From: Felis catus | Taxonomy: Eukaryota | Direction: 5' to 3' | DNA length: 64,000 nt | Assembly: GCF_018350175.1 (NCBI RefSeq) | Contig: NC_058368.1 | Location: 99,574,001-99,638,000, forward strand | Shown: piece after piece, positions 18,791 through 64,000 of the stretch | Position numbering within the stretch: position 1 is the first letter of the stretch | Layout of the letters: every line of letters starts with the position of its first letter | Notes under the pieces: model-generated | Told to the model about the DNA's origin: nothing | The model's database searches: none | The model's input: only the letters and a program-made list of their open reading frames with translations | Position numbers and translations under genes: made by a program

Positions 18791-19779
18791 TGCGAAGAGA
18801 TAGGAAGTATTTAGAGAAAGGCCTTAAACATGATCATAAATACCTCTTTATTAGAAGTCTAAGGTTAAACAAATAAATTTGTTTTAACAAATATAGTGCT
18901 GTCAATTAGCCGTGTCTTTAACAAAATTAAGTAGTTCTTTCCATAATCAAAGGAGAAAGAAATTCAACATGCAGAGCACTCCACATTAACATAAGAACCA
19001 AAATTCTGGCAAGGCCTCAAGAACTTGATAAAAAAGAAACAAAAGGGAAGCATGTAAAAGCTGTCCTCATTATCATCGCATATTAACTCTTTTGTTCAAT
19101 TATATTGGCAAAAGAGACTTGAAAAACCAAGCAGATTAATGATTTTAAAAGTTTCAGCTCCTTTATCTTCAAACTACAGAATGATGTGTGTTCTGCCTCC
19201 ATCTGGTCTTACTGCGTTTTATCTTATTTATTTGTCATCATGTATTCAGTATTCAGTTACTTCAGTGAGGAGCAAATTTTTAAGCAAAAACCTCACTGTT
19301 TCCAGCATAATGAGGGAACAGTGCAGTTCAACAGAGCCTTTTGATGTTTGGTTTTTACGTGTGAATTTGCAAGGAGAGTCTCACCCTCTTCCCAATACGG
19401 TTGGTTCAGCTTATCCTGCAGAAAGTATTATATTTTCTAACTTGGAACTTAAGCACTTCTTCACTTGCAAAAATTGATGCAAATCAATTTCGCCCATTAG
19501 TGACACAGAGTATATGAATTTCTTCTTGGTTATTTTAGCCTCAAGCACCGAATTTTGTTTTTCTTATTCTGTGATGTATATGTTGCTTGTGTTTATTTTA
19601 ATTCCAATGGACCATATGCTTTTCTTTTCATGCTTTTTCCCCTCATTTTACTGAAAAATAACTGTATAAGTTTAAGGTATACAGCGTGATGGTCTGATGT
19701 ACATATACTGTGAAATGATTAAAATGGGTTTAGTTCACATCCATCATCTCATGTAGATATAATAAAAAGGAAAGAAAAA

Positions 19780-22172: not shown

Positions 22173-23499
22173 GAGACAGAGACAATTGTCTCCACTGAGT
22201 AATTTTTTAACTCCCCTATTAAATATTAGTTGATTATATATACTTGAGTTTATATCTGGGCTCTGAATTCAGCTCCATTGTTCTAGTTGTTTTTATGCTA
22301 ACACTACACTGTTTTCATTACTGCAGCTTGAATGTATATGTTGATACTTCCTGCTTTTTTCTTCTTTCTTAAAATATCCACGGCCAGGGTCTTTTGTGGC
22401 CCTATGCACATAGGAGGACAGTTTTATTTCTACTTCTGTAATAAACACCATTGTAATCTTGATAGGGATTGTATTAAAATTCTGGCTAGCTTTGGTTGTA
22501 TTGCATTTTCTTTCATTTCTTCTTTGATCCATTGGTTATTCATGAGAGTGTTGTTTAATTTCCACATATTCATGAATTTTCCAGATTTCCTCTTGTTACT
22601 GATTTCTAGTTTGATGCCACTGTGGTCAGAGAAGACATTTGACATGATTTCATTCTTCTTGAATTTGCTGAGTTGTTTTGTAGACTAACATATGGTATAT
22701 CCTGGAAAATGTTCTAAGTGCTCTTCAGAATAATGTATATTCTGATGTTGAATAGAATGTTCTGCATGTGTCTTCTAGATCTGTTCAGTCTGCAGTGTTA
22801 TTCAAATCCTTGGTTTCATTATGGATTCTGTGTCTAAATGGTCTATCCATTGTTGAAAGTAAGGTATTAAAGTACCTCACTGTTTTTGTATTGCTGTTTA
22901 CTTATCCTTCTAGCTCTGTTAGTTGTTGCTTTATATATTTAGATGCCCCAATGTTGGAAAGAAAGATACTTACAGTTGATATATCTTGATAGATTGACCA
23001 CGTTATCCCAGGATAATGACCTTAGTTTGTCTATTTTTCCATTTTCAATTTAAAGTCTATTTTGTACAAGTAGAGCTACCCCTGTTTTTTTGTTGTTGTT
23101 ATCATTCGCTTCATATATCTTCATCCATCCCTTCACTCTCAGTCTATGTGTGTTTAAGTTTCAAATGAGTCTCTTGTGGGCAACATAACATGGATTTAAC
23201 TTTAACCATTCAGCCATTCTGTGTTTTGATTGGAGAATTTAATCTTTTTAAAGTAATTTATTGATAGGTAAGGACTGACTCTGGCTCTTAATTGTTTTCT
23301 GGTTGCTCTGTAGATCCACTGTTTCTTGTTTCTTATGCTTTCGTTGATCATACTTTGATGTCTTTTGGTATTTGTAGGCTTGGACCTCTTTATCATGTTC
23401 CTTTGTGTAACTGCTCCAGGTTTTTCCTTGTTGTTACCATGAAGCTTACATAATGTATTTAAAAGTATAACGCTATTTTAAGCTGATAGCAACTTAATT

Positions 23500-23704
23500 T
23501 AAAATTTTTGTTTTAATTTTTTTTTTTTTGAGAGACAGAGCAGGAATGGGGGAGGGGCAGAGTGGGAGGGAGACACAGAATCTGAAACAGGCTCCAAGCA
23601 CTGAACTGTCAGCACAGAGCCTGACACAGGGCTGGAACATGAACTGTGAGATCATGACTTGAGCTGAAGTTGGACGCTTAACCGACTGAGCCACCCAGCA
23701 CCCC
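23500..23704 (-). mobile_element. CAN-SINE
   Basis: Antisense SINEC; TSD tagcaact(t/c)aattt. Confidence 0.93.
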
Positions 23705-23865
23705 ACTAGCAACTCAATTTTAATAGAATTCCTAAGCTTTATACTTTTACTATTTAACCCCCTTTTAGGTTATTTCTAATACAGGTGACATATTTTTTAT
23801 ATTGTGTGACTAATAACATATTATTGTGGCTATGATTACTTTTACCAGTTCTTTATTTACTAATA

Positions 23866-24046
23866 TTTTTTAATGTTTATTTTTGACAGAGAGTGAGCAC
23901 AAATGGGGGAGGGGCACAGAGAGAGGGGACAGAGGATCCAAAGTGGGTTCTGCACTGACAGCAGACAGCCCAATGTGGGGCTCAAACTCACGGAGATCAT
24001 GACCTGAGCTGAAGTCAGACACTTAACTGAGTCATCCAGTTACCCT
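23866..24046 (-). mobile_element. CAN-SINE
   Basis: Antisense SINEC. Confidence 0.9.
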
Positions 24047-24728
24047 AGTTCATTTTTTAATTTTTAAACTAGAATTTAAGTGTATTATGTATCATCATTA
24101 TCATATTATAGAATATATGATTATATATACCATTACTAGTAATTTTTATTCTACCTTTTATGCTCTTGTGTCAATATGTCTTTCCTCTCGGAGAACTCCC
24201 TATAGTTTATCTTGTAAGACAGGTCTAGTGTAATGAATTTCCTCAGATTTTTTTTGTTTGGAAAAGTCTTTATCCCTCCAATTCTGAAAGAAAGCCTCAC
24301 TGGATAGACTTTATGGTTGCCATTTTTTTTTCTTTGAATATTTTGAATATGTCATCTCATTCTCTCCTAGGTTAAAAAAATTTCGTTGAGAAATCTGCCA
24401 ATAGGTGCATGTTTGTAATTTTTCTCTTATTCCTTTTGAAATTAATTTTTTTTTCTTTTTGAGTTTTGTGAGTTTGAGTCATGTGTCTTGGTGTAGCCCT
24501 ATTCAGGTTCTACCTATTTGCAATGTGTTGGGCCTCAGTGATTGGAATGTGCATTTATTTTCACAGGTATCACAAATTCTCAGCCATTATTGCTTTAAAT
24601 ATATATTCTAAACTTTCTCTTTCTCTTCTTCTGGAATTCCCATAATGCAAATTCAGACATACCTCATTTTATTGTACTTTACTCTCTAGTGTTCCACAGA
24701 TAGTGAATTTCTTTAAAATTGGACATTT

Positions 24729-24950
24729 GGGGGTGCCTGGGTGGCTCAGTTGTTACGCGTCCGACTTCGGCTCAGGTCATGATCTCACGCGGTAGGTGAG
24801 TTCGAGCCCCGTGATGGGGTCTGTGCTGACAGCTCAGAGCCTGGAGCCTGTTTCAGATTCTGTGTCTCCCTCTCTCTCTGCCTCTCCCCTGTTCATGCTC
24901 TATCTCTCTCTGTCTCAAAAATAAATAAACGTTAAAAAAAGTTTTAAAAA
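24729..24950 (+). mobile_element. CAN-SINE within Tigger1
   Basis: SINEC; TSD taaaattgg(a/g)catttggg. Confidence 0.95.
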
Positions 24951-25189
24951 ATAAAATTGGGCATTTGGGGCAACCCTGCATCAAGCAAGTCTCTTGGTAC
25001 CTTTTATGTTCCAACAGCATTTGTTCACTTGTTTCTATGTTGCTTTTTGGTAATTATCACAGTATTTCAAACTTGTTCATTGTCACTATATTTGTTACGG
25101 TGGTCTGTGATGAATGATTTTTGATGTTATTATTCTACTTACTTTAAGGTACCATAGACTGTTCTCATAAAAAATGGTGAACTTAATTT

Positions 25190-25375
25190 CTTCTATTTAT
25201 TTACTTTGAGAGAGAGAGGATGAGTCCGGAAGGGGGGAGAAAGAGAGAGAGAGAGAGAATTCTAAGCAGGGCCCATGCTCAGCACAGAGCCCACTGTACA
25301 GCTTAGTCCCACGAACTGTAAGATCATGACCTGAACCAAAATCAAGAGTTGGACACCTAACCCACTGGGCCACCC
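25190..25375 (-). mobile_element. CAN-SINE within Tigger1
   Basis: Antisense SINEC; TSD aaatggtgaacttaat. Confidence 0.9.
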
Positions 25376-26201
25376 TTCAAATGGTGAACTTAATCACTAA
25401 ATGTTGTGTGTGTTCTGACTGCTGCACAAACCACCGTCTTCCTGCTCCCCCAATCTCTCCCTCTCCTTGGGCTTCATACTCCATGAGAGACAACAATATT
25501 GAAATTAGGCCATTTAATGCCCCTACATTGGTCTCCAAGTGTTCAAGTGAAATAAAAAGTTACACATCTCTCACTTTAAATTAAAAGTTAGAAATATTTA
25601 AGCTTAGTGAGGAAGACATGTTGAGAGCCGAGACAGGCCCAAACCTAGGCCTCTCAAGACAAATGGTTCTTTTGTGAATGCAGAGGAAAAGTTCTTAGGG
25701 AAATTATTAGTTCTACTCCAATGAACACATGAATCATAGAAAAGTAAAATAGCCTATTACTGATACAAAGTCTTACTGGTCTGAATAGATGATCAAACCA
25801 GTCACACCATTCTCTTTATCCAAAGCCTAATCTAGAGCAGGGCCCTAACTTTTTTCAATTCTGTGAAAGCTAAAAGTGTTGACTATCCAGAAGAAAAGTT
25901 AGAAGCTAGCAGAGATTGGCTCATAAGGTTTAATGTAAGAAGCTATCTCCATAACATAAAAGTACATCATAAAGCAGTAAGTGCCAATATAGAAGCTGCA
26001 AGCAAGTTTTCCAGAAGATCTAGGTAAGATGTTCATGAGGGTGCCAACACTAAACAACAGATTTTCAATGTATACAAAATAGCTTTTATTAGAAGATGCC
26101 ATCAAGGACTTTCATAGCTAAAGAGAAGAAGTCAATGCCTAGTTTCAAAGCTATGAAAGACAGGCTGACTCTCCTGTTTGGAGTTACATACGTGGGGACT
26201 T

Positions 26202-26410
26202 TGGGAGCACCTGGGTGGCTCAGTCAGTTGAGAGTCCGACTCTTGACTTCAGGTCAGGTCACGATCTCATAGTCTGTGAATTTGAAACCTGTGTTGGGCT
26301 CTGCGCTGACAGTGCAGAGCCTGCTTGGGATTCTTGCTCTCTCTGCCCCTCCCCTACTCCCTCATACCCTCCCCCCGCCTCCTTCAAAATAAATAGACAC
26401 ACAAAAAAAT
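26202..26410 (+). mobile_element. CAN-SINE within Tigger1
   Basis: SINEC head and A tail. Confidence 0.92.
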
Positions 26411-29400
26411 AAAGGCTGACTCTCTTGTTAGGGACTTAGAGAGATGATGACTTTTCGTTGAAGCCAATGCACATTTCCATTTCAAAAATCCTAAGACCCT
26501 TAAGAATTATGCTAAAAATAGTCTGTGTATGCTCTTTAAATGGAACAACAAAGCCCTGGGTGACAGAAAACCTGTTTCCACCATCGTTTACTGAATATTT
26601 TATGCACACTGATATTTTGTGGACACTGCTTTTTCATAAAGTACCTGGTCACCCGAGAGCTCTGCTGGAAATGTACAAGATCAGTGTTGTGTTGATTCCT
26701 GCTAATGTAGCATGTATTCTTCAGCCCATGGATCAAGAAGTAACTTCAACTTCCAAGTCTCATTTTTAAGAAACACGTTTTGTAAGGCTATAGCTGCCAT
26801 AAAGAGTTATTCTTCTGATGGATATGGGTAAAGTTAATTGAAAACCTCTTGGAAAGAACTCATCATTCTAGATGCCATTCAGAACATTTGTGCCATCCAG
26901 AACATCAGAAGAGGTAAAAATATCAAAATTAACAGGAGCTTCAAAGAGGTTGAGTCCAACCCTCAGGAACGACTGAGGGGCTCAAGACTCCTATGGAGGA
27001 AATAGCTGAAGATGTGTTGTTAACAGCAAGAGAACTAGAATTATACATGGAGCCTGTCACTATAACTGAACGATTGCAATCTCATGGGGAAACTTTAATG
27101 GATAAGGAATCGTTTCTTGTGAATGAGCAAACAAAGTGGTTTCTTGAGGTGGAATCTACTCCTGATGAAGACGCTATGAAGATTTTGAAACAACAGAGGA
27201 TTTCAAATATGACATAAACTTAGTTGAAAAGCAGTAGGCAGGTTTCAGAGATTTGAATCCAGTTTAGAAAGACGTAGTATTGTGGATAAAATGCTATCAA
27301 ACAGCATCACATGCAAGAGAGATTGCTTGTGAAAGGAAGAGTCCGTCAGTGCAGCCAACTTTCTTGCTATCTCATGTAAAACAAATTGCCACAGCCACCC
27401 AACCTTCAGCAGCCACCATCCTGATGGGTCAAGAGCCACCAACATGAAAGCAAGACCTTCTACCAGGAAAAAGATGACAACTCACTAGCTCTGATGACAG
27501 GTCACATTTTTGAGCAATTAAGGATTTTTTTAACGAGATACGTACATTGTCTTTTAAACATGATGCTATTACACACTTATTATACTAACCTGTACTGGCA
27601 ACATAACTTTTATATGCACCAGGGCGCCAAAAAGTCCCTTTGACTAATTTTACAGCAATATTCGCTTTCTTGTGGTCTGGATCTGAATGCACAGCATCTC
27701 TGAGGTATGCCTGTATGTAATTACCTAAATTTAAAAAAAGGAAGCATTATACCATGTTTAAGAATAACTGCACATAACACCTATACTTATCTGGCTAGGA
27801 TATTTTGACATGGTTTGTGGGAAACAGAGCTACCATTTTTCTCATGACAGTAGCTTTTTTCCTCTTTTGTCATCAGACACTAGAAGACAGTAGACTTTTC
27901 AAAGAGATTTGCAATCTATAAAAAAATAAAGCGTTCAAAAATGATAGATACTTCCGTGAGATTGCATACTTATCAGCTGTGTATGTAGATACTTAGGCTC
28001 GTTTGCCAGTCCAAGTTAAGTTTGACAAGGAGCAAAACGCTTTTTGAAAAAGAGAAAATATTATTATATCAAATCGGTATCCTAAATGGGAAGTTGAGTC
28101 TATCATCCAACAGAAAGAATAACCACTGGTACCTTTTATTCACATAACAGTGGATGTTTTCTAAAAGTGATTCACACTGGTTATTCCATAAATACCCACC
28201 TGACACAGCTTCTCCTGGGTATGGTGCCTTATAGTCCACAGTTTTCACTCATGCTTTTGGTTTTAACTTAAGGTATCTTTGCAGAGATTCTGGGACTGTG
28301 TTAGCCTCCTTATTCTAAAGTTGGTGGCCTAGAGGCTACATGAAGTAAGCAGCCTGCCCACACTCAGCTCCTAGAGGATCATGGGGAGCAGGCTAACCAG
28401 GCTGAACCCATAGTTTGATGCTTGTACCATTCCTTGTCCCATGCACGTGAGCCTCTAAATCGCTGCTGCTGTGTTCCAAGGGAGTTCAGCTCCAAATGTT
28501 TGTGATCCAGTTATTAGGAACACAGAGAATTTTCCGAAGTCCACAGCATTATACAAACTATATCGTAGAGAATTCGAATTCACCCATCCCTATGTTTACA
28601 GTGTTTTTTCACTGGTAAATTACATTTCATATTCTGGCTGTGGAACAGGATTCGTCCCCACAGAGGACCATTTAATGACTTAGAATTTTTGAAACATCAC
28701 ATCTGGATGAAAATGGAAACTCATCCAACTCAACATTCTTCTGGTTTGTGACACCAAGGCATAGAGAGGATAAAGAACTTGTTTACTCTGACTTTGCAGT
28801 GCACAAACAATTTTAGCCTCCTGGGCAGAAAAGAGCTGAAATCCAGCCTAATTCCACTGGGCAAACTGTGTGGCTTGGCTCAGAGCCAGCCGCCTGAAAA
28901 GAGATCTTTTTTTTTTTAAGGTACCAAGTTACGTGCCTGTGGGGGATGAGTCTGTCCGGGGTTGAGGCCTTTTCCTAATGTGCATGAAGGAGCTGTATAG
29001 TTCTGTCTAAATGTATTCACACTCTGGATTGGCCTTGCTCCTTTGCTGTTGGGTCTGTGAAGTTCCTTCCCTGATGAATACAGCTATGTGTGTTCACTGT
29101 TAAGGTGCCATAACATTCTGGGGAATGAATGCAATGAAATCTGTTCACTGTTTGCTTACAGATATTTGGGTTATTTCCAGTTTTAGGTTATTACAAATTA
29201 TGCTGTAAGCAATATCACATTCACATTCATTTTGTCATATTATCAATGTTTCCTGAGTATAACATTTAACATGACTTTGAGGTTTGCCGACACCTGAAAT
29301 TTGAAAATGAGTTTCCAGGGTCCTATCTGTAGAGTTTTTGAGTCAGTAGATGTGGGTTAGGTCTCTACAATGTATATCGGTGACAGTCTCTAGGTCCTGT

Positions 29401-30246
29401 GTTAGCTCTACTAAAATCACGTCCTTGGTGTTCCCATTGAGTGAATGGGATATGTTTCTTGCTGGCACTGGGATTCCTTTAGAGCGAGTATCTTTCAGTT
29501 ATACACCAACTGTAAAAACTAGCTTTAGCTACTTTGGTTGGTTTTTGAAGAAAAATCAGTACTACAGTATGTGCACTTTAATACTTGGAAGAGTTCAAAG
29601 TATATGTCATAGTCTGCTGTCTTGGGATGTCTTGGCACACCTTGGTGGAAGTCTGTGCAGCCCAAGGCTGAATTGTTTGCACTTCACAAGGGTGGAGAGG
29701 GGGAGTGACAGAAAGAAGAGACAGTGGGCAGTTTTAGGCCCCCTTCAGCCCATGTTTCACTACTAAACATGGGACACAGGGAAATCACCAACCTCTCTTG
29801 TCCAAAGATCCCGCCTTCACTCTCTGCATGCTCCCTGACTGTGATCTGAGAGGTTACTCAGAGAAACTCTGGAAGAAAATGAGGTTAGCCCTCAATGCCC
29901 ATTGATAATTAATGTAATTTTGATAGTATCAATGGAAAAAAGTTTATATGCAGGTGTCTAGGTCTTTTGTTTTATGTACTCAAAATAGTAGTAACTTTTT
30001 TTAAAGGGTAGCTGAAGTTTTCAGTAGTTAGAGCTCAAAGAATTTTTTTGTCTATGTTTTCCAGTTATTAGTCCTGAAAATAAAGCAAAACGGAAAAGAT
30101 CTTAGCTTGGATGAATATGGCAATGAATCGTCCATTATTCAGGCACCACTGGGTATTGATAGAAGGCTCCTAAATCAACATAGTTTATATAAACTTTTCT
30201 CTCTTACCAAAGCAGAGGAGTAAAACTTTAAAACCACAAAGCTACC

Positions 30247-30450
30247 AGGGGTGCCTGGGTGGCTCAGTCAGGTGAGCATGTGACTTCTGTTCGGGCCATG
30301 ATTTCAAGGTTCATAAGTTCCAGCCCCACGTTGGGCTCTGTACTAGTGTGGAGCCTGCTTAGGACTCTGTCTCTCTCACTCTCTCTCTCTACCCTCCCCC
30401 ACTCATGCTATCTCTCAAAATAAACAAATGGACTTTAAAGAAAAAAAATA
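30247..30450 (+). mobile_element. CAN-SINE
   Basis: SINEC head, (CT)n and an A tail. Confidence 0.93.
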
Positions 30451-31588
30451 CACAAAATGAAAATAGTTTAGAAAGTAAAGCACATGAAGCTGTAACGTGT
30501 AGATGGGTGGTAGAGAAGCCGCTGATTGCTCCGCCCACCTCTTCTCCCCACACACTATGTGAAAGGCCAGAAAGCGGCATTTAAACCCGCAGGTGTGAGT
30601 ACCAGGGCTCGCACAATGTCTGGGAGGAAAAAAATACCCACACTCCCATCTGCTTCATTTACTACTACCAGCCAGGGAACCTAGAAGCAGAAGGGTAGGT
30701 CACGTGTGAAAGTATAAACCAAAAGTTTAAGAATGGCCGTTGGAAGAAATGTCCTTCATGTATTCTACAACGAATACAATCCACAAATGAAAGAAAATAA
30801 TAGCATGTGGAACCATATAAAGGTATTAGGCTCTAATGTGAAAATGCACTGCTGATCTCCTTGACTACTTTTAAGCTAGCTCTGCCCCTCTGTTTCCAAA
30901 TTTCAAAATATTAAGATCTGAAACATATATCTTAAACATGAAGCACCAGGTAGCTATAATATTTCCATATACGTATTTAATGTTTACAGGGTTAGTTCTG
31001 CTTTTAATAACCATAGATACTGTTTTACATGGGGAAGAAGTCAAATGAGCATTAAAACCTTAAATTATTTTTTATCATGTCTTTTCTCTATGAAGTTCAT
31101 CTATTAATATGTTCATATAATTGAGAGGACAAAGGAACTGTAATAAAGTGAGAGAGATTATATTCATGTCGTATTTTCTACTCAAATCTTTTATAAATGA
31201 ATGGCTAATGTTCTGGAGTATTACTCTTACAAAGTGCTTTTAAAACAGAAAATTAAGAAGGCATCCTTCTTCTCTAATATCTAAGCTTTACTGCATCCTT
31301 GTTGGTTACTTTGGAGACTTCCTTCTCCAGATGGAACAGTTACCCACCACCCAGTACAGGGGGGAGAACAGGAGGGAGATGGAAAGAGGGGGAAATGCTA
31401 TCTTAATATTGTGTCTCTAATGATACTGTGTTGGGGGAAAAAATTCTTGGTCGTTGTTCTGATGCCAGTCAACATAAATTTCTTTTAATAGTTTTTCTTT
31501 AAAAAGACCTTAGGTTCTTCAATAATCACATGATACAGCATAGCACAATAGTTTAGTAACTATATTGCAAATTAAAATGAAGGCTTAC

Positions 31589-33121
31589 CTCTAGGATCAG
31601 AGAATGCATTACATTCTATACAAGCCACATTGTGTTGTCAACATCCAGTGATGGTAACTAGCCATCTTTTGAGCTACTCAAGGTCACTGGGAAACCACCT
31701 CACCCAGAGAATCAATGGTGCTAGACAGAAATGAGTACCAAAACTATTTTATCATCTCTTGCTGAGTCTAACCTGAAGAGTGTTCCTTCTCTGAATTAAT
31801 TTCATATAAAGAAATTTATTTCATATAAATTTCAAATATTTATTTCATATAAAGAAACCAAATCATTGCTGCCACCCTATACCCTTCAACAAACTAGGTT
31901 GAGCTAAAAACCAGTCTTGGTCCCTCAGCAAGGAGTCTTCTGGTGAAAGAAATTATTTTAATGAGGGAACAATGTCAAGACAGATGATAACTTGAAAAAT
32001 CTGTTAATTACATAGCTTTATTTCTCTTAATGTCCTATTTCATATTACAATGAAATTTCTGTTGCTCAACAGATGACCTTAAGGGACAAACCTTTTACTT
32101 TTTTCTTCTATCAGAAGGTAATATATGCTCAAAAAAAGAGAACTTAGGAAGAGAGGGGCACACCTCCCCCATGTTCCCCACATCATCCAAAACTGTCACC
32201 CAGAAACAGCCACTGTTAATACTGTGGTGTGTGTCTTCCTTGTTTCTTCTCTGTATATATGCATCTATGCTAACACAAAGAATCATACTCTGTACAGTAA
32301 TAAGCTTTTTCTTTTGGTGTGTATTGTTCATGTTTTTCCATATCACCAAATACTGTTTTATAACCTTTTTAATTATAATAAAGGATTCCATCATATAAAT
32401 TGCATTGTCCTTATAAATAAGTAGGAAGGGATGCCTTGCCTATTTCTACTCAGGAGTTTCACAAAGCACATGATTCTAAGGATATTATTAAAAAGTTAAG
32501 ACATATTTCTAAGTCAGTTAAAACACTTTGGAAAACAAATAGTGATGGATGTTAAATTCAAGTAGAAAAAAAAAGACTTCATATGGACATTCTAGTGAAA
32601 GAGCTCAGATGAGGACAGAACAGGGTAGACTCTTCAACATGAAATGATAGAACAAGTCTAGGTGGATTTCCATCATGGTGGCTCCTGAAAAGGAGGCTGT
32701 GTTCTGATACGATACACTAGTTCACATATAACTTTCAGGAAGCAAGTTAAGCTTGCCTATGACTAGCCTTAAAAGACAATAAAGCACTTTTCTTCTTGGA
32801 CTGTACTTTTGCACTTAAAGAGTATTAAAGCGGACTTACCATTATGAACCGATTTTACCTTACTAGAGGTTCTTCCAGCAGAAACATAGTTGCATTCTTC
32901 CCTCACAAAGAATGATAAACAGGATAACATTGATTTTTCTGTCTGACAAGAAAGGAACAACACTATTTTGAGAATAGGTATACTGAATCAGATGGGCAAT
33001 AAAATAGTAATGGTTTTCTTTCATTTAGAATGTTAGGCACAATGTATTCGAACATCCTACAAGCAGTAACACGTAAGGGAATACGAGTGCTGAGCATCAA
33101 GAGGTGAAGTTACTAGACCAT
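31589..33121 (-). pseudogene. Three exon-like segments (33061-33121, 32840-32942, 31589-31720) of an unidentified, apparently disabled gene
   Basis: Each segment has an AG acceptor and a GT donor (two are GTAAG). Joined peptide: DGLVTSPLDAQHSYSLTCYCLQKNQCYPVYHSL*GKNATMF../..PLILWVRWFPSDLE*LKRWLVTITGC*QHNVACIECNAFSDPR. It contains stops and needs one frameshift. Confidence 0.4.
32060..32410 (-). mobile_element. Old L1 (L1ME-like) 3' end
   Basis: cacccagaaacagccactgttaatactgtggtgtgtgtcttcc is typical of antisense L1ME 3' UTR. Confidence 0.65.
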
Positions 33122-33394
33122 CTACTAAATGATCAAAAGTAGGAATGATACATATTGGGGGCAGGAGGGAAAAGAGTAATGACTTAAAAAAATCAGAATA
33201 TATTTCATTGATTTGTCATTCACTTTGATCTTCTCAAGTATCTATTTTTTAAACCATGAAAGTATATTATGAGTTTATTTGATTTCACTATCCTATCAGA
33301 ACTTACCAATTCAGTTCAGTGAACATTTACCTACGACCTACTACGTGCCCAGTGCTGTGCTAAGTTCCAGACAGGGAGTGTGCTCCATCTGTCT

Positions 33395-33628
33395 GCACTA
33401 AAAGGCCAGTTCATGGTTAGCATTTTTTTAGCAACAAAGAATTTTTTTAATTAATGTATGTACATTGTACTTCTAGACATAATGCTATGACAGTTAATAG
33501 ATGACAGTATAGACAAGCATAATTTTTGTGTGCACTGAGAAACCAGAAAATTTCTCTTGCTTTATTGTGACATTTGTTTTATTATGGCGGTCTGGAATCA
33601 AATCCCCAACACCTCCAAGGTATACATA
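33395..33628 (+). mobile_element. Second Tigger1 3' end (solo ~230 bp)
   Basis: Homologous to 27485-27713 (gttagcattttttta..tgtacattg..gtctggaa..ctccaaggtatacata + TA). Confidence 0.88.
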
Positions 33629-33629
33629 T

Positions 33630-34790
33630 ACTGCTGTTTATCCCATAAGGCCCTTAGGCTCTTTCTTCTTTTTTCTTCTCCTCCTTCTCTTCCTCCCCCC
33701 CTCTCCTGCTACTCTAATTATAAATGCCATATTCTCCAGGTCACTGATTCTTTCTTCTGGATAATCAAATCTTCTGCAAGTCTGTATGGAAGTTTTCAGT
33801 TACTATATTTTTCAGCTCTTAGATTTCTGGTTTTCTTTTTGGTGGTTTCTGTTTTTTGATCAAACTTGGTTTTTTTCATGTGTTGTTTTCCAAACTTTCT
33901 GTTGTTGTCTGTGTGTTCTTATAGTTTGCTAAACTTTCTTAGGATTATTCTGACTTTCTTGACAGTTCACATATACTCATTTCCTCGGGGACAGTTATCG
34001 GAACTTTATTCCTGTTCGTGGTGTCATATTTACTTGAGTTTTTGTTTTTCTTGTTTTACATTGATAGCTGAACATTCGGGGAATAGGGCTCCTCTTCCAG
34101 ACTTTACAAGTTTGCCTTGGCCAAGATCAATCATCATGAGTCAGTTCGTTTGGGTGTCTGGGAATGAATGCTGATGATGTCCTGGACAGGCAGGTCAGCT
34201 ATTGTGGTGAGGTGACAGAGCCCTGATGTTGGTGATGGAAGGGTGTGCCACTGGATGAGAACAGTTGAACAAGACAGCTGGCTTGGTTCCATACCCAAGC
34301 GAAGCTGTAGGATGTTGCCGTAGTTGCCTGAACTTTCTGGTCAGGTGTACGAGAGGGTCAGGACTGGGTAATACACTGAATAAGAATGGAAATAAGAATT
34401 TGCTTCCCTGTCCTGACAAGTTAGCAGGACTGGACCCCTCAGTGCCTATAAGGCTCATTGTTTGGGGTTGCAAATCTGTTGAGTGTGTACTGAATTACTT
34501 GGTCTGATGAGGTCATTGGTTTTGCACTGCAGATAGGGAAAGCTAGGGGCTGTGCTCTTTATTCAAGTGACACTGTAAGTAGAGCTATTAGATGGGTGAC
34601 ACAGCTTCTCGTAGCCTGGTTAGGTTTCCTGGTTGGGCAGGCTGAAGGCTGGATTCAATGATGGGTAGGGTTGAGTGTAGGGCTGAGGGCTCAGGGTTTC
34701 CCTGAGTGTAGTAGGACCATCTCTAAAGTCACTGAAACTATTTGTTGTCTCAATCTACTCTGTACCCCAAATTCTCCAGCTAAATAGGCC
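33630..34790 (-). mobile_element. L1 5' region (ORF1 start and 5' UTR), probable continuation of the L1 ending at 24653
   Basis: tcccataaggcccttaggctctttc..ctccaggtcactgattctttcttctg is collinear with the uninterrupted equivalent at ~45830-45950. Confidence 0.7.
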
Positions 34791-39213: not shown

Positions 39214-39416
39214 ATGAAAAGATTTTTGAAAAGAAAATATATATACACCCAAATCCATAAATAATGAAAAATTAAAATTTTATGGTCAGTTCTTCAGGGG
39301 TAAAAATGGCCAAGTATTTTCCACTGAGGGCATCTCAACACCATATTTTGTGGTATATAACTATCGGGACATCAGAATCATTATTACTTTGTGGCATTTT
39401 TAATAACAATTTTGTA

Positions 39417-39868
39417 CAATAGCCAAATTATGGAAAGAGCCTAAATGTCCATCAACTGACGAATGGATAAAGAAATTGTGGTTTATATACACAATGGAGT
39501 ACTACGTGACAATGAGAAAGAATGAAATATGGCCCTTTGTAGCAACATGGATGGAACTGGAGAGTGTGATGCTAAGTGAAATAAGCCATACAGAGAAAGA
39601 CAGATACCATATGGTTTCATTCTTATGTGGATCCTGAGAAACTTAACAGAAACCCATGGGGGAGGGGAAGGAAAAAAAGAAAAGAGGTTAGAGTGGAAGA
39701 GAGCCAAAGCATAAGAGACTGTTAAAAACTGAGAACAAACTGAGGGTTGATGGGGGGTGGGAGGGAGGGGAGGGTGGGTGATGGGTATTGAGGAGGGCAC
39801 CTTTTGGCATGAGCACTGGGTGTTGTATGGAAACCAATTTGACAATACACTTCATATATGGAAAAAAA
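39417..39868 (+). mobile_element. Young 5'-truncated felid L1
   Basis: Nearly identical to 63177-63628; perfect TSD ataacaattttgta. Confidence 0.96.
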
Positions 39869-42062
39869 TAACAATTTTGTATTTATCTTTTAGATCAGCT
39901 ATAAATACAATAAAATCAGTGCAGACAAATGCTGAAAAGGCCTTTTCTCCTCTCGTTCATTTCTTTTCTGGTAGTTGAGCAGAATGGATATAAGTGATCA
40001 GTTGCCTTTGATATTGAATTAGCCCTCTCATTCACCTATCATTCTTCTCTTTCTCTAGTTATTAAATTTTTGTCTTTAAAACTTCCAATTCTCTGCCTAC
40101 ATTACCCATCTGTAAGGCATACTGTCTATTGTTTTCCATTAGAGTCCTTAGCATATTAATACTAGTTTTTAATTCATAGTCTGATCAGTTCAACAGCCTG
40201 ATCCTGATGCTTGCTCTCTTAGCAGTGTTTACCTTTTACTGTGCCTTCTCCATTTTTGTTGCTGTTGTCGAAAGGTAGACATGATGCACTACATAAAAAG
40301 GAATTGTACTAGATAGGCTTTTAGTAATGCAGTCAGAATATGTGAGGAAGAGAGCATTCTATATTCCTATGATAAATCTCAGTCTTTGGGTAAACCTCTG
40401 TCCCAGGGCTGTGAATGTAACCATGGGGTTTCAGTGTCCACCCACTGTGGGTATGACAGGATGGCCAGAGGCAGATAGAGTCCTATGCCTTCCCCATGAG
40501 GCTCTGATAAAAAAAATTACTCCTAAGGGCAGGCCTTGCTAAGAAGAACAGAGTTTACTGGTATATTTCAAAATGATTGATTTTCCCCTCTCCCTGCTAG
40601 AGTCAAGAGGAGATTTTGCCCTCATGTTCTCTGTAAGAAGCTGATTAAGCTTCTGGAGGTAAAAACTCAAAGCCATATGCTTCCCCTCCTTCGGTGATTG
40701 GACCCCCTTGCTGTTTATCTCACTGGCTCATCACACACTAAGCTTCCAGAAATTTGTCAATTAGAGTTCAGGTCTTCGTACCGCTGTACGGGTTGCCACA
40801 TACATTTCCACCATGGGGTTCATGCTTTGGTAAGTTGTGAAAGTCTATATTCCCCTTTTTGTCCCACCAATTTGGGGAGGCTTCTTTGTTGCTATAGTAC
40901 TATATGAGTTCTTTATATAGTTTGGTTATTAACCCCTTATCAGGTATGTATTTCACCAATACTTTCCCCAGTTACTGGGCTGCTTTTATCTTTTGTTGAG
41001 GATTTGCTATGGTGTACAGAACTTTTTAGTTTGATGTATTTATCCACTTGTTAATTGAAAAAAAAATGTTTATTTCTGAAAGAGGAGAGAGAGAATCCAC
41101 TTATTTTTGATGTTGTTGCCTTTGTTTTCGGGTTCACAGCGAAAATATCATTGCCAGGACCTCTGAGGAGCAGCTGCCCACCTATGCTGTCCTCTAGGAC
41201 TACTGTTTCAGGTCTTACCCCCAAGTCTTGTATCCCTTTTGAATTGAAGTTTGCATATGGTGTAAGATAGTAGACCACCTCATTCTTTTCCATGTGACTG
41301 TCCAGTTTTCCCAAGACCATTTGTTAAAGACACTGTCCATTCCCCATTGTGTATTCTTACCTCCTTTCTCATAAATGAACTGGCCATAAATGTATGGGTT
41401 ATTTTTAAGCTCTGTTCTTTTGATCTGTGTGTCTATTTTTATGATGATAACATACTGTTTTGATTAGGGTATCTTTGTAATCTAGTTTGAAATCAAGGAG
41501 TGTGATGCCTCCAGCCTGGTTCTTTTTCAAGATTTTTTTGCCTATTTCACACCCCCTGTAATTCCGTACAAAGTTTAGGATTGTTTATTTCTGTGACAAG
41601 TGCCATTGGAATTTTGGTAGGGACTTCATTGCATCTCTGGATTGCTTTGGGTAATATGGACATTTTTACCATATTAAATCTTCTAATGCATAAGCACAAA
41701 AAATCTTTCCATTTACTTGTGGCATCTTTATTTCACCAGTGTCTTAGAGTTTTCATTATACATGTCTTTGACCTCCTTCATTAAATGTATTCATATATTT
41801 TATGCCTTGAGGGAGGTGCAAATGGGACTAATTTCTTTTCCTGATAGTGCATTATGAGAATAAAGAACAGATTTGTGTACATTGATTTTGTATCCTTCAA
41901 CTGCTGAATTTATCTGTTATTTCTAACAGTTTAGTGGAGTATCTTGAGTTTTATATATGTGGTATTACATCATATGCAAATAATTTTACTTCGTCCTTTC
42001 CAATGCCTTTGGATGCCTTTTATTTCTTCCTTGCTTAATTGTCATTGCTAAGACTTACCATA

Positions 42063-42738
42063 CAGGCATATCTCAGAGAGTTTAGTTTGAAACCCTTCAC
42101 AATAAAACAAATATCACCGTAAAGCTAGTCAAATGAACTTTTTAGTTTCCTAATGCATATACAAGTTAGGCTTACAATATACAGATGGCTATTAAATGTG
42201 CTGTAGCATTATGCCTAAAGAACAATGCATACCTTTGTTTAAAAAAAAAACAACAAAACATGTTAGGGGTGCCTGGGTGGCTCAGTCAGTTTAACATCTG
42301 ACTTTGGCTCAGATTATGGTCTTGTGGTTCGTGAGTTTGAGCCCCGAAGCAGTCTCTGTGCTGACAGCTCAGAGCCTGCTTTGGATTCTGTCTCTCCCTC
42401 TCTCTCTGCCCCTCCCTTGCTTGCACTCTGTCTCTCTCAAAAAATAAAACATAATTTTTTAATAATAATAAAAATACCTTTATGCTAAATAGTGTTAAGC
42501 TTAATCTGAACTTCCAGTAAGTCACTGTCACGGATCACAGATCATCATGCCAAAACGTAATAGAGTTTGAAGCATTGCAAGGATTACCAAAATATACAGA
42601 GAGAGAAAGCAAGCAAATGATGGTAGAAAAATGGCACTGAGAGATTGGCTCAGTGCAGCCTTGCCAGAAAACTTCAATTTGTAAAAAATGCACTATCTGT
42701 AAAGCATAAGCAAGTGCAATCACATTAGTTGTGCCTAT
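42063..42738 (-). mobile_element. Internally deleted Tigger1 derivative with nested CAN-SINE (42266-42465, +)
   Basis: Begins TA+caggcatatctcagaga (reverse complement of the Tigger1 3' end) and ends with a degenerate reverse-complemented 5' end (agtgcaat..gtgcct). Confidence 0.82.
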
Positions 42739-44757: not shown

Positions 44758-47309
44758 ACAATGATATTCTTCATCTTTTTTAAAGTCTATTTTGTGTGAG
44801 TGTAACTATCCTTGCCTTTTTTTGTTGTTGCTTAAAATATCTTTTTCCCTCTCTTCACTCTCAGTTCCTGGGTATCATTAAGGCTAAAGTAAATTTCTTT
44901 TAGGCAGGATATCACTGGATGTTGTTTTCTTTTCCATTCACAGTCATTCTATCTTTGGTTGAAAATTTTGAAGTATTATTTTTTTGTAGATCCAATGTTC
45001 CTTTCTTTTTATCTGATGCCTTATTTTGTGTTTTGATGGCTTTTCACATCAGTATAGTTTATCATGTTCTTTGATAAAATTGCTACCGGGTTTTCCCTTG
45101 TGTGTATCAGGATGTATACATAAAATACCTTAAAATTATATCACTGTGCTAAAATGAGTAAAGTGATGTATACTTTGTCATCTCCTGCCCCTCATGTTTA
45201 AGATTACTAATGTTACAATTTACTTTTTTACATTGCATAACTAACAAGTTATTGTAATCATGTTTTTATTTTTACTACATTCATTTTTCACTTTAAGTTA
45301 GACTAGAAACTGAGTTGTACATCACCAAAGCATGTTAAACCTAACTTTGACTATATATTTACCATTACCAGGGAGTTTTATGCAACCTTCTTATGTTTTT
45401 ATGATGTTACTTATTTCTTCTCCAATCTCCTTAGGAGTTCTTTTATGGCAGGTCCCGTATTAAGTTTGGGAAAGTCTATTTCTCCTTTATTTCTGAACTA
45501 CAGCTTTACGGGGTATAGATTTCTTGCTTGACATATTTGAATATGTTATTCTATTCTCTCCTGGTCTGAAAAGTTGAAAAATCCAGTTCTTTGTGGGGGG
45601 GGTGGGGTCCCTTATTTGTTACTTCTTTTGCTGCTTTTTAAATTTTCTTGTTTTTGATTTTTGACAATATAATTAAATATGTCTCAGAATAGCCCTATTG
45701 ATTTCAACCTTTCAGCTATTTTAGACCTCATCCATCTGAATGTTTATTCCTCTCCCTACAAAGGTAAAGTTTTAAGCCACTATATATTTATATATTCAAA
45801 ACTTCTGTCCTTTCTCCTCTGGGATTTTCATAATGCAAATATTGTTTCTTTTCATTTTGTTACATAGGTCCCTCAGACTTTGTTCACTTTTTCTTTATTT
45901 TTACTTTTTGTTCTTCTGATTGGATAATTTCAAACAGCCTGGTTCTTCTGCAAGGTTATATTTACCTTTGAAATTCTCTCTTGAAATCTACAGTTCAGGC
46001 ACTGTATTTATTATTTCAACTCTGAGATTTCTGTAGTCTTGTTGTTTATGGTTTCTGTTCCTTTGTCAAACATCTTATATTCATGCAATTTTCCTAATTT
46101 CATTTTAGTTGTCTGTGTGTGTGTTGTTGTAGCTTGTAGGGTCCCTGGTTTGTGGTCTTATCTGACCCACACCCTATGTTTCATGACTGAACAGGGCCAC
46201 TGACTCTGCTCTGCAGACTGTCTGCCGTGCCTGCTCAGATCTTGGCTTGAGTGTTGCTGAATTATACAGCTTCCAGATGTTGTCACTAGCCCTCTGCTCA
46301 GAAGGGACTGGGGAGCCAGGGTCTACTGTGAGGGCTATGTTTTAATTCCATGTCTGGGCAAGACAGGGAGGGGCTTCTCAAGGGAACTCCCAACTTTCAC
46401 AAAGGAGTTTTATGGCATCAGGGCAGTAGCTACTCTCAGCTTCAAATGAGGCTGTGGATTAATTCCCCTTCCTAGACCCAGCAGGGGAACCCTCCTCCAC
46501 CCCTATTGGCTTTGTCATAGCTGTGATCAGCTCTACTTGCCCAACTCCCAGCAATGCTTTAGTATGTAACCTCCTTGTGTTCTTGCCAATCCTTCTAGAC
46601 AGACGGGGCCAGGAAATATTCTCCTTACAATTGTGGGGCTTTGATTTCCCTCTTGCCTGAGCACATAAGGTGTAGAGCTGGAAAAATTCCTTGTTTGAAT
46701 GCCCACATGGGCCAACCTTTATCACCTAGACTTGTTCTATCATTTTATGTTGAAGAGTCTACCCTGTTCTGTCCTTATCTGACTCTCTAGACTCTCCATA
46801 TGAAGTCTTTGTTTAACATCCATCACTACTTGTTTTCCAAAGGGTTTTAATTGACTTAGAAATAGGTCTTAACTTTTTAATAATATCCTTAGAATTATGT
46901 GCTTTGTGAAACTCCTAAGTAGTGCCACCATTTGTCCTGCAGATGAGCAGAACTGTTGGTTGGGACTGCTATTTTGGCTCTGCAGGTTTAAACTCCATCT
47001 GCCCGGATCTGAGTGGTGGTCATTGCAGGCCCCACCCCCTTCAGTGTCACAATCACCTTCCAAGTAGTGGAGCTCATAGATTCTCCCTCAGTCGGCATGG
47101 GGCAAGATCAGAGTCTTTGTTCCCCTAAATGACCCACAGCACTAGGGGGGGGGGCACAGGATGTCCCCCTCATGCTCTTTTTTTCAAGGGAAAGAACCAT
47201 AAGCTCAGGGGAAACCACTCATTGTGGTGCTATACCAGCCTTGTTGGAGGTGCAATGCAGTCAGTGTGTAGTGACTTCTCTTACTCTTCTAATGCACACG
47301 AGCCTCACA

Positions 47310-58974: not shown

Positions 58975-61620
58975 TACTGTGATCTATGAAGGGGAGGGTG
59001 GAACAACACAAGTTTGTATTCACCACATTAGGACCAAGAAGTCAAGGCTTTCCTGAGAACTAAGACACAAAAGGATATTTTCCTGAGTTTGTTGAAACTA
59101 CGTCATGTAAGGGGCACCTGGGTTGCTCAGTGAGTTGGGCTTCCGACTCTTGATTTCAGCTCAGGTCATGATGTCATGATTCATGGTAGCGAGCCCCTCT
59201 GTCAGCTCTGCACTCACAGCACAGAGCCTGCTTAGGATTTTCTCTGTCCCTCCCGCTCCTTCTCTGTCCCTCTCTCCCATTCATATTCTCTCTATACAAA
59301 ATTAAAATGGGTAAGGAAAAAAAAAAAACTACATGAAGTGGCTTTCTCAGTTGATAGATTTATTGGTACCACATTTCATTTAATTCTATTGTCTCGTATC
59401 TGTTCTACCAATCTGCATTAGGTAATCAGAACTTCAACCTGAACATTATTATTGCTAGTGTGGCCAATGTAAAGAATATAAAAGGCATGGTACCTTACCA
59501 GTTATGGTACATGGTATAGACAATAAACAAATACAGGAAGACCCATGTTTCCCGAGACAGAGAGGGATTTCTTGGGATTGAACAGTTACTGCTTGTGTCA
59601 ACAACTCCCAGAGATAGTATGTCTCCATATCTTATAAAGATGAATATCTCTGTTGTGTGGCTACTAGACTATTTTACCTTCGTGGGAATTAGACTTTTAA
59701 ATGCCACATCAGAGCCAAGATTAATTGTTCATGGAGCTATTGAGCATTCAAAATTTATGACCTTCCCAATTCCCTTAAAAGAATTTGTTTCTTTACAAAT
59801 CGTAAGAGACCAAACCTTTCCTGGTGGATTAAATGATAACTCATGGAACGTACTCCTGTGTATAATAATCCCATCCATACTAGCTGGAACACTCAAAGGG
59901 ATAATAAAAAATTTGTTCCCCATTTGGGCCAGCAATGGTAATGATAAATTCCATTCTCTTGGGGCATAACAAACAAGTTTATATTTATCAGCCAGTCTTA
60001 TAAAAAAATAACAGAATAGCATTGATTGCCTTTGGCCCATGGGTGGGGGCATCTATGCCAATGCTAATACTCCATGCTAAAAGAAAATTCAATCTGGCTA
60101 GGTCCTGCAACACGAATATTGATTACAGAGTACTAAGTACTTCTTTGCATTCACTGTCCTCACAGGTGATTCAAGCTTCAGGTTAATCAGCATTGAAAGT
60201 GAAAATGAGAACTACCCAAGTGACTTTATCTTCAAGCAATTTGGCAAGAGTGGTGGACTTGTGACAACCCTTGAAGCACTCTCCTGGGTTGACTTAGCAC
60301 TGAAAACAAAAAGAAGTTCCCATACTTCCAGGAAATGGCTGACTGTTTTAGAGCCATAGTAAAAAGTAGCCATCAGAACCAGTTTCAACCTGATTCAATA
60401 ATAAATGACAGCTCTCTACAGCCTTGGGAACAAGTACTTTGAGAACTGGATTTTAACAGCTAAACTTATCCTAGTGCATAAACCATAGGAAGTTCCTTGC
60501 AATGATAGTTCCTTACTTCTAATTTTGGCCAATCAAAGAAGAACTCACTCCAGTGCACAGCCAGCTTCATGAGCATGTGATTAATAAAGGACTTTGCCCT
60601 CTGAAAAGGTCCAGTGCATGGCATTTAGTGATCTATGGTTATTATCTTAGAATTATTAATTTTATCCTTAAATGTGTATTCTATAAATGAAGTCCATTGG
60701 ATCAATGAAGCATAAGTTAGCAGCTTGGATCCTTGGCTCATGTGCAACCCCACTACTCACCACCACTCTGCATTCTTAGGGCAGATGGTAGCTGAGAACC
60801 TTCCTAATCCCATTCGACCACCATTGCCAATTTCAGCCTCCCTAATGAGGGCCTCGGGATTGTTAGGAATTGGGTCCAAATACTAGGCCTAAGATTCCTA
60901 TAAGGGTCTATGTTTAGGCTTTCCTATAAAATGTGACATTAGATGGCAAAACAAAAATGCCATGACAGATCACCAGACAGACCACGGAAGAAAGGAAAAT
61001 GGGGTATCCCCCCCTGCTTTTTGAAAAAAAGGATATCACATTTTAATGTTGGAATGGGCTTTTAAAGTATGGAGCTGGTTCTGTTCCAATGAATCCATTT
61101 CTCAATGCCAACCAATGAGCAGCCCTGTGCTTCTACCAATGACATCAACTCATTGATGTCAATGAAAGCCAGCCAATCCCTGAAACACTGTACTCCAGAA
61201 AATCCTTTCATAAAATCAGCAATCTGCTCATCTGTGAGTAATTATGCCTGGAAAACATAACTTCTTATATACGTTTCAAAAAAATGCAGTTTGGTGGGCT
61301 TCTGGATGTCTGTTATCTCCAGTATTGTGCAATGGTCTCCTAATTTGACAGAACCAACATTTTGCTATACGAGGATGCCAGAGATCTGGTATATTTCCAG
61401 TTCTTTGACACTGAAAAGAATTTTTTGAAACAGAGGGTTGTTAGAATTGGTAAGATGTGCTAAAAAATACCATTGATAGTCTTCTCAAAAATATTTTTCC
61501 CCTATATACCAGGAAAAAACTTTATCGCTGAATTCAAGAATTTGGCTTTCATAACATTATCATTCCCGGTTCAGAAGGCAAACTAAGAAAAACTTTTCCA
61601 ACCTGATTACACTATGTAAT
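58975..61620 (-). pseudogene. Decayed Ty3/Gypsy (Sushi-type, PEG10/RTL1-like) gag-protease-RT sequence
   Basis: Manual minus-strand translation gives collinear domains. Gag CA-like: LEKFFLVCLL..DKVFSWYIG..DYQW..NNPLFQ..VKELE..ETYIRSYVFQA*LLTDEQIADFMKGFS..DINELM. Degenerate knuckle: FLFCHLMSHFIGKP. Protease-like: VVGLHM..SFIE..ITIDH*MPCTGP..VHWSEFFFDW..VYALG. RT-like: SISIGIDAPTHGP..FFIRLADKYKLVCYAPREWN..LPLL..SFNPPG..FECSIAP..FIFIRYGDIL..LFI..IIM..K..ADW. About 23 stops and 3-4 frameshifts counted by eye, plus a SINE insertion. Confidence 0.85.
59111..59328 (+). mobile_element. CAN-SINE inserted in the RT region of the Gypsy-like pseudogene
   Basis: SINEC head, CT tract and poly-A; imperfect TSD aaactacgtcatgt / aaactacatgaagt. 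Confidence 0.93.
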
Positions 61621-62930: not shown

Positions 62931-63628
62931 AAATGAACAAATCAGGAGACTATAGATGCTGGAGAGGATGTGGAGAAATGGGAACCCTCTTGCACTGTTG
63001 GTCAGAATGCAAATTGGTGCAGCCGCTCTGGAAAGCAGTGTGGAGGTTCCTCAGAAAATTAAAAATAGACCTACCCTATGACCCAGCAATAGCACTGCTA
63101 GGAATTTATCCAAGGGATACAGGAGTACTGATGCATAGGGCCACTTGTACGCCAATGTTTATAGCAGCACTCTCAACAATAGCCAAATTATGGAAAGAGC
63201 CTAAATGTCCATCAACTGATGAATGGATAAAGAAATTGTGGTTTATATACACAATGGAATACTACGTGGCAATGAGAAAAAATGAAATATGGCCTTTTGT
63301 AGCAACGTGGATGGAACTGGAGAGTGTGATGCTAAGTGAAATAAGCCATACAGAGAAAGACAGATACCCTATGTTTTCACTCTTATGTGGATCCTGAGAA
63401 ACTTAACAGAAACCCATGGGGGAGGGGAAGGAAAAAAAAAAAGAGGTTAGAGTGGGAGAGAGCCAAAGCATAAGAGACTCTTAAAAACTGAGAACAAACT
63501 GAGGGTTGATGGGGGGTGGGAGGGAGGGGAGGGTGGGTGATGGGTATTGAGGAGGGCACCTTTTGGGATGAGCACTGGGTGTTGTATGGAAACCAATTTG
63601 ACAATAAATTTCATATATTAAAAAAAAA
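62931..63628 (+). mobile_element. Young 5'-truncated felid L1 (intact ORF2 C-terminus and 3' UTR)
   Basis: The uninterrupted 154-aa [35 protein letters not shown].. is the L1 ORF2 cysteine-rich end; G-rich 3' UTR, aataaa and poly-A follow. Confidence 0.97.
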
Positions 63629-64000
63629 TAGGAGAAGTTCATATCATATTGAAGTGAATAAATGAACAAGAAAATAACTGCCAAGAGATCCTGGAAAGGA
63701 CCCAGTATTTTTCTTTTCACTTATGCAAAAGTAAAAAATAATATAAATGCAGAGTAAACAATCTTTTCATCATATAAAATATAAATAATTTTAATGTAAG
63801 AAATATGTTGTTTAACATACTATCTTATATATTCTGTATGGTTATTTTCATCCAAGGTCTAAGGTTGAGTTGTCTGAAATAAACATGGAACACCTTTTTT
63901 CTTCTTTTATGAAATCAAACTAAATATACACTTTGGCAGTTGTGTCTTGTGAAGGAGAGTACTTTCTAAGATATTTATGTACAACAAGAATGATAAAAAT

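Follow-up and report, generated by a model that had tools for sequence, protein, structure and literature searches.

In the stretch of the cat genome analysed here (Felis catus; 64 kb, hereafter the window), one TA of a single L1 is occupied by the 5′ end of a Tigger together with a Tigger 3′ end, and between them lie an extra Tigger 3′ end and foreign DNA. The L1, which lies antisense, breaks off at 24653 and picks up again at 33629, with a block of 9 kb between its two halves. This insert (24654-33628) measures 8975 bp, or about 8 kb once its short interspersed nuclear elements (SINEs) are discounted, and is made of a complete Tigger (T1), a segment of host DNA that we call the cargo, and a solo Tigger 3′ end (Table 1). 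It is a well-preserved and real fossil rearrangement, which probably arose either by repair-mediated copying or by transposase-mediated movement. With a probability of roughly 45%, we favour a scenario in which a break in the L1's Tigger was repaired off another Tigger copy, through the end of that copy and into 5.7 kb of its flank, and was then closed by end joining. The surroundings are repeat-rich mammalian DNA (29-45% GC per kb) with many tRNA-derived SINEs, presumably of the cat-family type.

The evidence that the block interrupts one L1 comes from an intact L1 copy at about 45.8 kb in the same window. When aligned alone to this copy, the left piece reaches copy position 45840 (223 of 296 columns identical), while the right piece starts at 33637, equivalent to 45856 of the intact copy, and continues from there (189/263 aligned columns). 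Both alignment scores (156 for the left flank, 113 for the right) exceeded those of all 200 shuffles made for each flank, whose maxima were 55 and 59. The intact copy carries TA at 45840-41, and thus the break in the host L1 sits on a TA. At the junction, six bases (33631-36) stand in place of 14 in the intact copy, leaving a shortfall of 8 nt. By a rough estimate, same orientation together with adjacency within 8 nt at a TA would be unlikely to arise by chance (0.1-0.2%). The first-pass annotation of this DNA had proposed that the antisense L1 stops immediately before a Tigger 5′ repeat at 24654, resumes only after a solo 3′ end at 33628, and is contiguous elsewhere in the window (~45830-45880). 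All three proposals held: the terminal repeat was found at 24654, the alignment and the TA at 33629-30 place the resumption, and the halves meet in the intact copy at 45840/45856, where there is one TA.

The adjacency of the L1 halves depends mainly on this one reference copy. A second L1 copy (~52 kb) backs the left flank to 24632 and gives a gappy, overlapping alignment for the right flank; a third L1 region (4-5 kb) yielded low alignment scores only. The left half is interrupted by later SINE insertions and probably continues to its 3′ end near 19640. On the other side, the DNA beyond 33928 and up to 34780, the distal part of which scored weakly, may be the 5′ part of the same L1. A TA lies behind both Tigger 3′ ends, and TT is found on the 5′ side, where the intact L1 has TA; duplication of a TA target site is a criterion for Tigger/pogo elements (PMC9219625). 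A Tigger inside an old L1 is in itself ordinary, because a Tigger1, a family dated near the divergence of the mammalian orders, has been described interrupting an L1MB3 (PMC1914374).

T1 spans 3060 bp, which become 2364 bp once three SINE insertions are removed with their duplications (238, 207 and 251 bp). Its 5′ terminal repeat begins at 24654, after the TT, and its inner 3′ repeat ends at 27713, followed by TA; the earlier claim that the first Tigger has its own 3′ repeat there, with some 5.7 kb behind it, is borne out by the 5683-bp cargo. The 14-letter motif of this inner 3′ end has two mismatches to the 5′ end of T1 and one to T3, another Tigger copy in the window, and its six matches window-wide are not above chance (17/100 shuffles). 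Within T1, the decayed transposase retains a DDE_1 domain above the Pfam cut-off (expectation value, E, of 4e-9) and a CENP-B_N match below it (E 0.004). The transposase has 268 relatives at E<=0.001, and two of the ten clusters that were looked up are named 'tigger transposable element-derived protein 1-like'. We take T1 to be presumably a Tigger1, a subfamily whose 2418-bp consensus its length fits. That consensus length is the one given in the supplement of PMC8277862.

Several searches and side observations concern T1 or its terminal repeats. One of its SINEs, in the transposase region, has an imperfect flanking duplication of ~40 bp (26162-26210 and 26413-26450), longer than a usual target duplication. 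A second protein search returned one whale protein, annotated as 'nuclear RNA export factor 3-like', and gave no name for the element; a segment of this protein matches the C-terminal region of the T1 transposase at 59% identity and is probably an exonised or mis-annotated Tigger piece. Among viral contigs, the terminal-repeat motif occurred at five loci, none with a DNA match to the window under a low-complexity filter; a more sensitive run on these loci returned weak matches only (64-65%), away from the Tigger copies. The single locus with the motif in bacterial genomes is regarded as probable chance, and the search for relatives among plasmids gave no match.

How old the event is can be approached through the Tigger 3′ ends. 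The first-pass annotation had noted that the two 3′ ends of the block differ at many positions, and indeed only 141 of 201 columns are identical between the inner end and the solo end. The solo end itself exists as described, its start falling at ~33397 in our alignment rather than at 33395. For comparison we used T3, which sits at a TA in a different L1. Pairwise identities of the 3′ ends are 70% (T1-solo), 73% (T1-T3) and 73% (solo-T3), and in the 178 ungapped columns of the three-way alignment all copies agree at 92, two agree against the third at 24, 28 and 23, and all differ at 11. This star-like pattern argues that T1 and the solo end have no extra common history, and with these pair-shared counts we rejected a recent duplication of one 3′ end. 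The two would then be independent copies, or would have been duplicated while the element was young; judging from the alignment, the event appears to be ancient or to have joined independent copies. Reading the divergence as a sign of independent insertions is not conclusive, as a duplicate of a young element would look alike today.

The solo end and the 3′ arm of T3 also start at nearly the same place, at ~27484 and ~27475 in T1 coordinates (within ~10 nt), in a comparison that involves one copy and a weak alignment (anchored scores 23-31). It is suggestive that the solo end could be the 3′ arm of a T3-like family of short Tiggers. The available part of PMC5753468 lists TIGGER1 and names no short Tigger1 derivative family.

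The cargo contains one young SINE (~30248-30450) and old repeat fragments, which we take to be L1ME-, MER5- and L2-like. Its GC content (0.38) and CpG depletion (0.21) are similar to those of nearby unique DNA (0.36/0.24 and 0.33/0.21). No Pfam family was found in any of its six frames, no Rfam match across the window, and no long paralogue of it within the window. Neither a Tigger remnant nor a second 5′ arm was detected in the cargo on either strand; all 12 piece-by-strand scores fell within the range of 20 shuffles, and on these scores the idea of a concealed second 5′ arm was rejected. In sequencing runs, 0.99 of the sampled cargo words were present in 14 of the 24 listed runs, from eight studies, and seven of these 14 runs (three studies) are not flagged as a possible source; one run that contains part of the words is labelled feline metagenome. 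The cargo is real DNA of this species, the run words covering the cargo itself and not its junctions. RNA-labelled runs contain 0.20-0.73 of the cargo words, which could be genomic DNA and therefore give no evidence of expression. A rough splice-site scan ranked 32942-32840 and 30619-30539 as the best exon-like candidates on the minus strand, and an exon-like segment on the plus strand (~30060-30110) was spotted by eye. When translated cargo was compared with metagenomes, two of 38 candidate stretches passed (E 3e-4); they have no DNA similarity to the window and were attributed to chance. No function of the cargo or of the block is evident today.

A piece of the cargo has a second copy 14 kb away: 32446-32664 matches an inverted segment at 189 of 200 aligned bases (94.5%). 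Its likely origin is a later templated insertion from nearby. On that reading, the cargo would already have been in place when the copy was made, much later than the activity of Tigger; a low-copy repeat is the alternative.

We propose that a Tigger would have inserted normally at a TA in the L1, a step supported by the split L1 and the TA. While Tigger copies were still near-identical, the copy in the L1 may have broken, or an excision gap may have been under refilling, and the left broken end could have paired with another Tigger copy elsewhere. Synthesis would have run through the 3′ end of the donor Tigger and on into 5.7 kb of donor flank, before end joining to the right broken end, which would retain the last 232 bp of the original element. 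The L1 would thereby have come to contain a duplicate of the donor flank. This scenario fits the anatomy in one step, with one 5′ end, two 3′ ends, and a cargo that begins exactly at the inner end and its TA. It requires a tract of up to ~8 kb, and in mammalian long-tract gene conversion up to ~10 kb can be copied and the process can terminate by end joining (PMC5104497). Moreover, to judge from the younger copy of 200 bp of the cargo at a distance of 14 kb, templated insertion appears to occur at this locus.

Three considerations place this repair route slightly ahead. It needs no pre-existing solo end, and the cargo holds no 5′ arm for one. The arms of the solo end and T3 start within ~10 nt of each other, which hints that gap repair may have been aborted at the same point in both. 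In addition, most single-copy animal Pack-TIRs, in which host DNA lies within terminal inverted repeats (TIRs), arose after insertion by gap filling, and in primates 91 of 97 have an orthologous element free of the capture (PMC8277862). Other points weigh against it. No donor copy was seen, nor a long paralogue of the cargo in the 64-kb window searched. Over 232 bp the right end would have been homologous to the copied strand; ordinarily the two would anneal and the cargo would be trimmed away, so that a minority outcome is needed. The figure of ~10 kb comes from sister-chromatid reporters in cultured cells and would have to be carried over to ectopic germ-line donors. Finally, the common start of the solo and T3 arms comes from one comparison copy and the weak alignment mentioned above, which was not lengthened by the bases upstream of the solo end that match the T3 5′ arm.

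A different possibility, which we consider tenable though at clearly less than even odds, is that Tigger transposase moved or assembled the 8-kb unit, with 5.5 kb of host DNA, through the ends of two elements or chromatids. Excision on the outer ends could have released a macrotransposon, made up of a full Tigger with its flank and another 3′ end close by, which was then pasted into the L1; or the 5′ end and 3′ end of two elements or sister chromatids could have inserted jointly as a composite, the trailing DNA being broken and fused. At a single TA of the L1, the outer 5′ and 3′ ends do enclose the entire unit and point towards each other. In maize, Ac/fAc arrangements have a like anatomy, with composite insertions of 14-23 kb whose internal junction is end-joined (PMC4270019), as well as macrotransposons (10 and 28 kb) capable of moving or excising (PMC9910405). 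The composite form accounts for the truncated solo end in one step, and the star-like pattern of the three 3′ ends suits an event in a young family. However, the 2-bp duplication does not separate insertion of the whole unit from a simple insertion altered later, since the single mark around the unit (TT/TA at the L1's TA) is expected from both. A pure macrotransposon would also demand that the inner end be skipped and the 5′ part of the second element be lost, and no trace of this part remains in the cargo. Furthermore, most single-copy captures are independent of transposition (PMC8277862), and we found no natural mammalian case in the open-access literature (PubMed Central CC and bioRxiv). 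The first-pass annotation had offered outer-end transposition and Tigger-Tigger recombination as the two alternatives; jointly they take most of the probability, with recombination or repair slightly ahead.

The same junctions could be produced by a host rearrangement in several steps. Two Tigger copies in direct orientation might have undergone unequal crossing-over, or a circle might have integrated by recombination, so that a larger segment was duplicated or moved; a later deletion would then have removed the DNA in between along with most of the second Tigger. This is consistent with the independent-copy behaviour of the two 3′ ends; but two or more events are needed, as is a large deletion that stops 232 bp from a Tigger end, and no duplicate of the cargo or of the left L1 half lies within the 64 kb, which leaves it improbable in our view. 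We regard it as very unlikely that two unrelated L1 fragments meet here by coincidence or that the assembly was mis-joined at repeats. The L1 halves are only 72-75% identical to the intact copy, which leaves some room for this; yet they have the same orientation, come within 8 nt of each other at a TA, and are each bordered by a transposon end. Repeats that have diverged by ~30% seldom produce assembly mis-joins, and 0.99 of the cargo words are present in the seven runs not flagged as a possible source. We also considered a double inversion, which predicts a downstream inverted Tigger without its last 232 bp; T3 has both ends and its own site, and the idea is unsupported in the window.

Several known systems resemble this block. 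Like animal Pack-TIRs, it has single-copy host DNA between termini that belong to a single TIR family. Tigger1 has been recorded as a carrier, with 21 occurrences in Supplementary Data 1 of the survey, where gap-filling capture is the leading model (PMC8277862, Tan et al. 2021). In contrast to Pack-TIRs, the 3′ end is present twice here and the cargo stands behind an already complete element, although the outer termini are present. The survey's size criterion for internal DNA is 100-5000 bp and the cargo measures 5683 bp; the largest of its human cases is 3585 bp, and no human case was gained when the cut-off was set at 10 kb (PMC8277862). The survey also required a unique parental copy with at least 90% identity and no flanking transposable element (TE), thereby leaving out parents with flanking TEs, and states that cases with a TE-linked parent may have been missed (PMC8277862). 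For the cargo, no full parental copy was found in the 64-kb window. The two cat rows in the survey extract are MER20 and MER5B, not this locus (PMC8277862). Because its size lies outside that range, its 3′ end is doubled and no parent turned up in the window, we do not class the block as a Pack-TIR.

As in a macrotransposon or composite insertion, an element and host DNA are framed here by outer 5′ and 3′ termini that lie in direct orientation. The parts of the block, a full element, captured flank and a 3′-end fragment, are also those of maize Ac/fAc, where they lie within one target-site duplication, in a similar size class (PMC4270019, PMC9910405). However, the maize elements are hAT transposons with an 8-bp duplication observed in real time, while the present case is a fossil, a mammalian pogo element at a 2-bp TA in a unit that may have moved. 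We do not class the block as a macrotransposon, a name that would entail movement as a unit. With long-tract gene conversion the favoured scenario shares homology-started repair, several kb copied beyond the homology and an end-joined finish, the difference being that sister-chromatid reporters in cultured cells were used there and an ectopic germ-line repeat donor would be involved here (PMC5104497). In the end-bypass transduction of P elements, an element likewise travels with its downstream flank (PMC8277862), but the downstream end is a chance one, whereas our block is closed on the outside by a genuine second terminal repeat, as part of 232 bp of Tigger sequence.

Table 1. Features of the Tigger block, its host L1 and related copies in the 64-kb window
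Feature	Position	Strand	Description
Left half of host L1 (L1a)	22174..24653	-	collinear matches to other L1 copies; stops at 45840 of intact copy
Left target-site dinucleotide	24652..24653	+	TT here, TA at equivalent intact L1 position
Tigger T1	24654..27713	+	near-full-length Tigger-type (pogo) DNA transposon, decayed; terminal repeats and DDE_1 domain
Cargo	27714..33396		5683 bp; first bases TA; non-coding; 38% GC
Solo Tigger 3′ end	33397..33628	+	~232 bp; decayed terminal repeat, then TA
Right target-site TA	33629..33630	+	directly after solo Tigger 3′ end
Right half of host L1 (L1b)	33629..34780	-	alignment to intact copy spans 33637-33928
Comparison copy T3	42063..42738	-	internally deleted Tigger; 5′ arm joined to ~240-bp 3′ arm; one SINE inside
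Younger inverted cargo copy	46723..46922	-	200 bp; apparently in 5′ part of another L1; no evident target duplication

Elsewhere in the window, at 59500-61500, an open frame of 149 aa on the plus strand overlaps one of 107 aa on the minus strand, and frames are otherwise broken. This stretch gave no match in Pfam, the PDB, a protein search or the ESM Atlas, and is possibly a decayed pseudogene or a very old retroelement. Two young L1 3′ ends (39395-39940 and 63153-63699) are 90% identical over 553 columns, and an AT-rich, palindromic low-complexity tract lies within an L1 at 1342-1704.

The significance of these results is bounded by the nature of the case, which is one fossil locus with an inferred mechanism and a cargo that holds no gene or function. 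Within these bounds, the host L1 preserves a record of the empty site, which is rarely available for events of such age. If the transposase route were true, the block would represent a naturally occurring mammalian fossil of a macrotransposon or composite insertion, of a class that the filters of the Pack-TIR survey may have missed. Indeed, its anatomy of complete element, flank and second end lies outside the published Pack-TIR filters. A systematic search of genomes for older repeats that such blocks interrupt could turn up further cases and gauge how far DNA transposons have reshuffled mammalian genomes. Under either leading model, Tigger ends would have served, early in the history of mammals, to relocate or duplicate several kb of host DNA.

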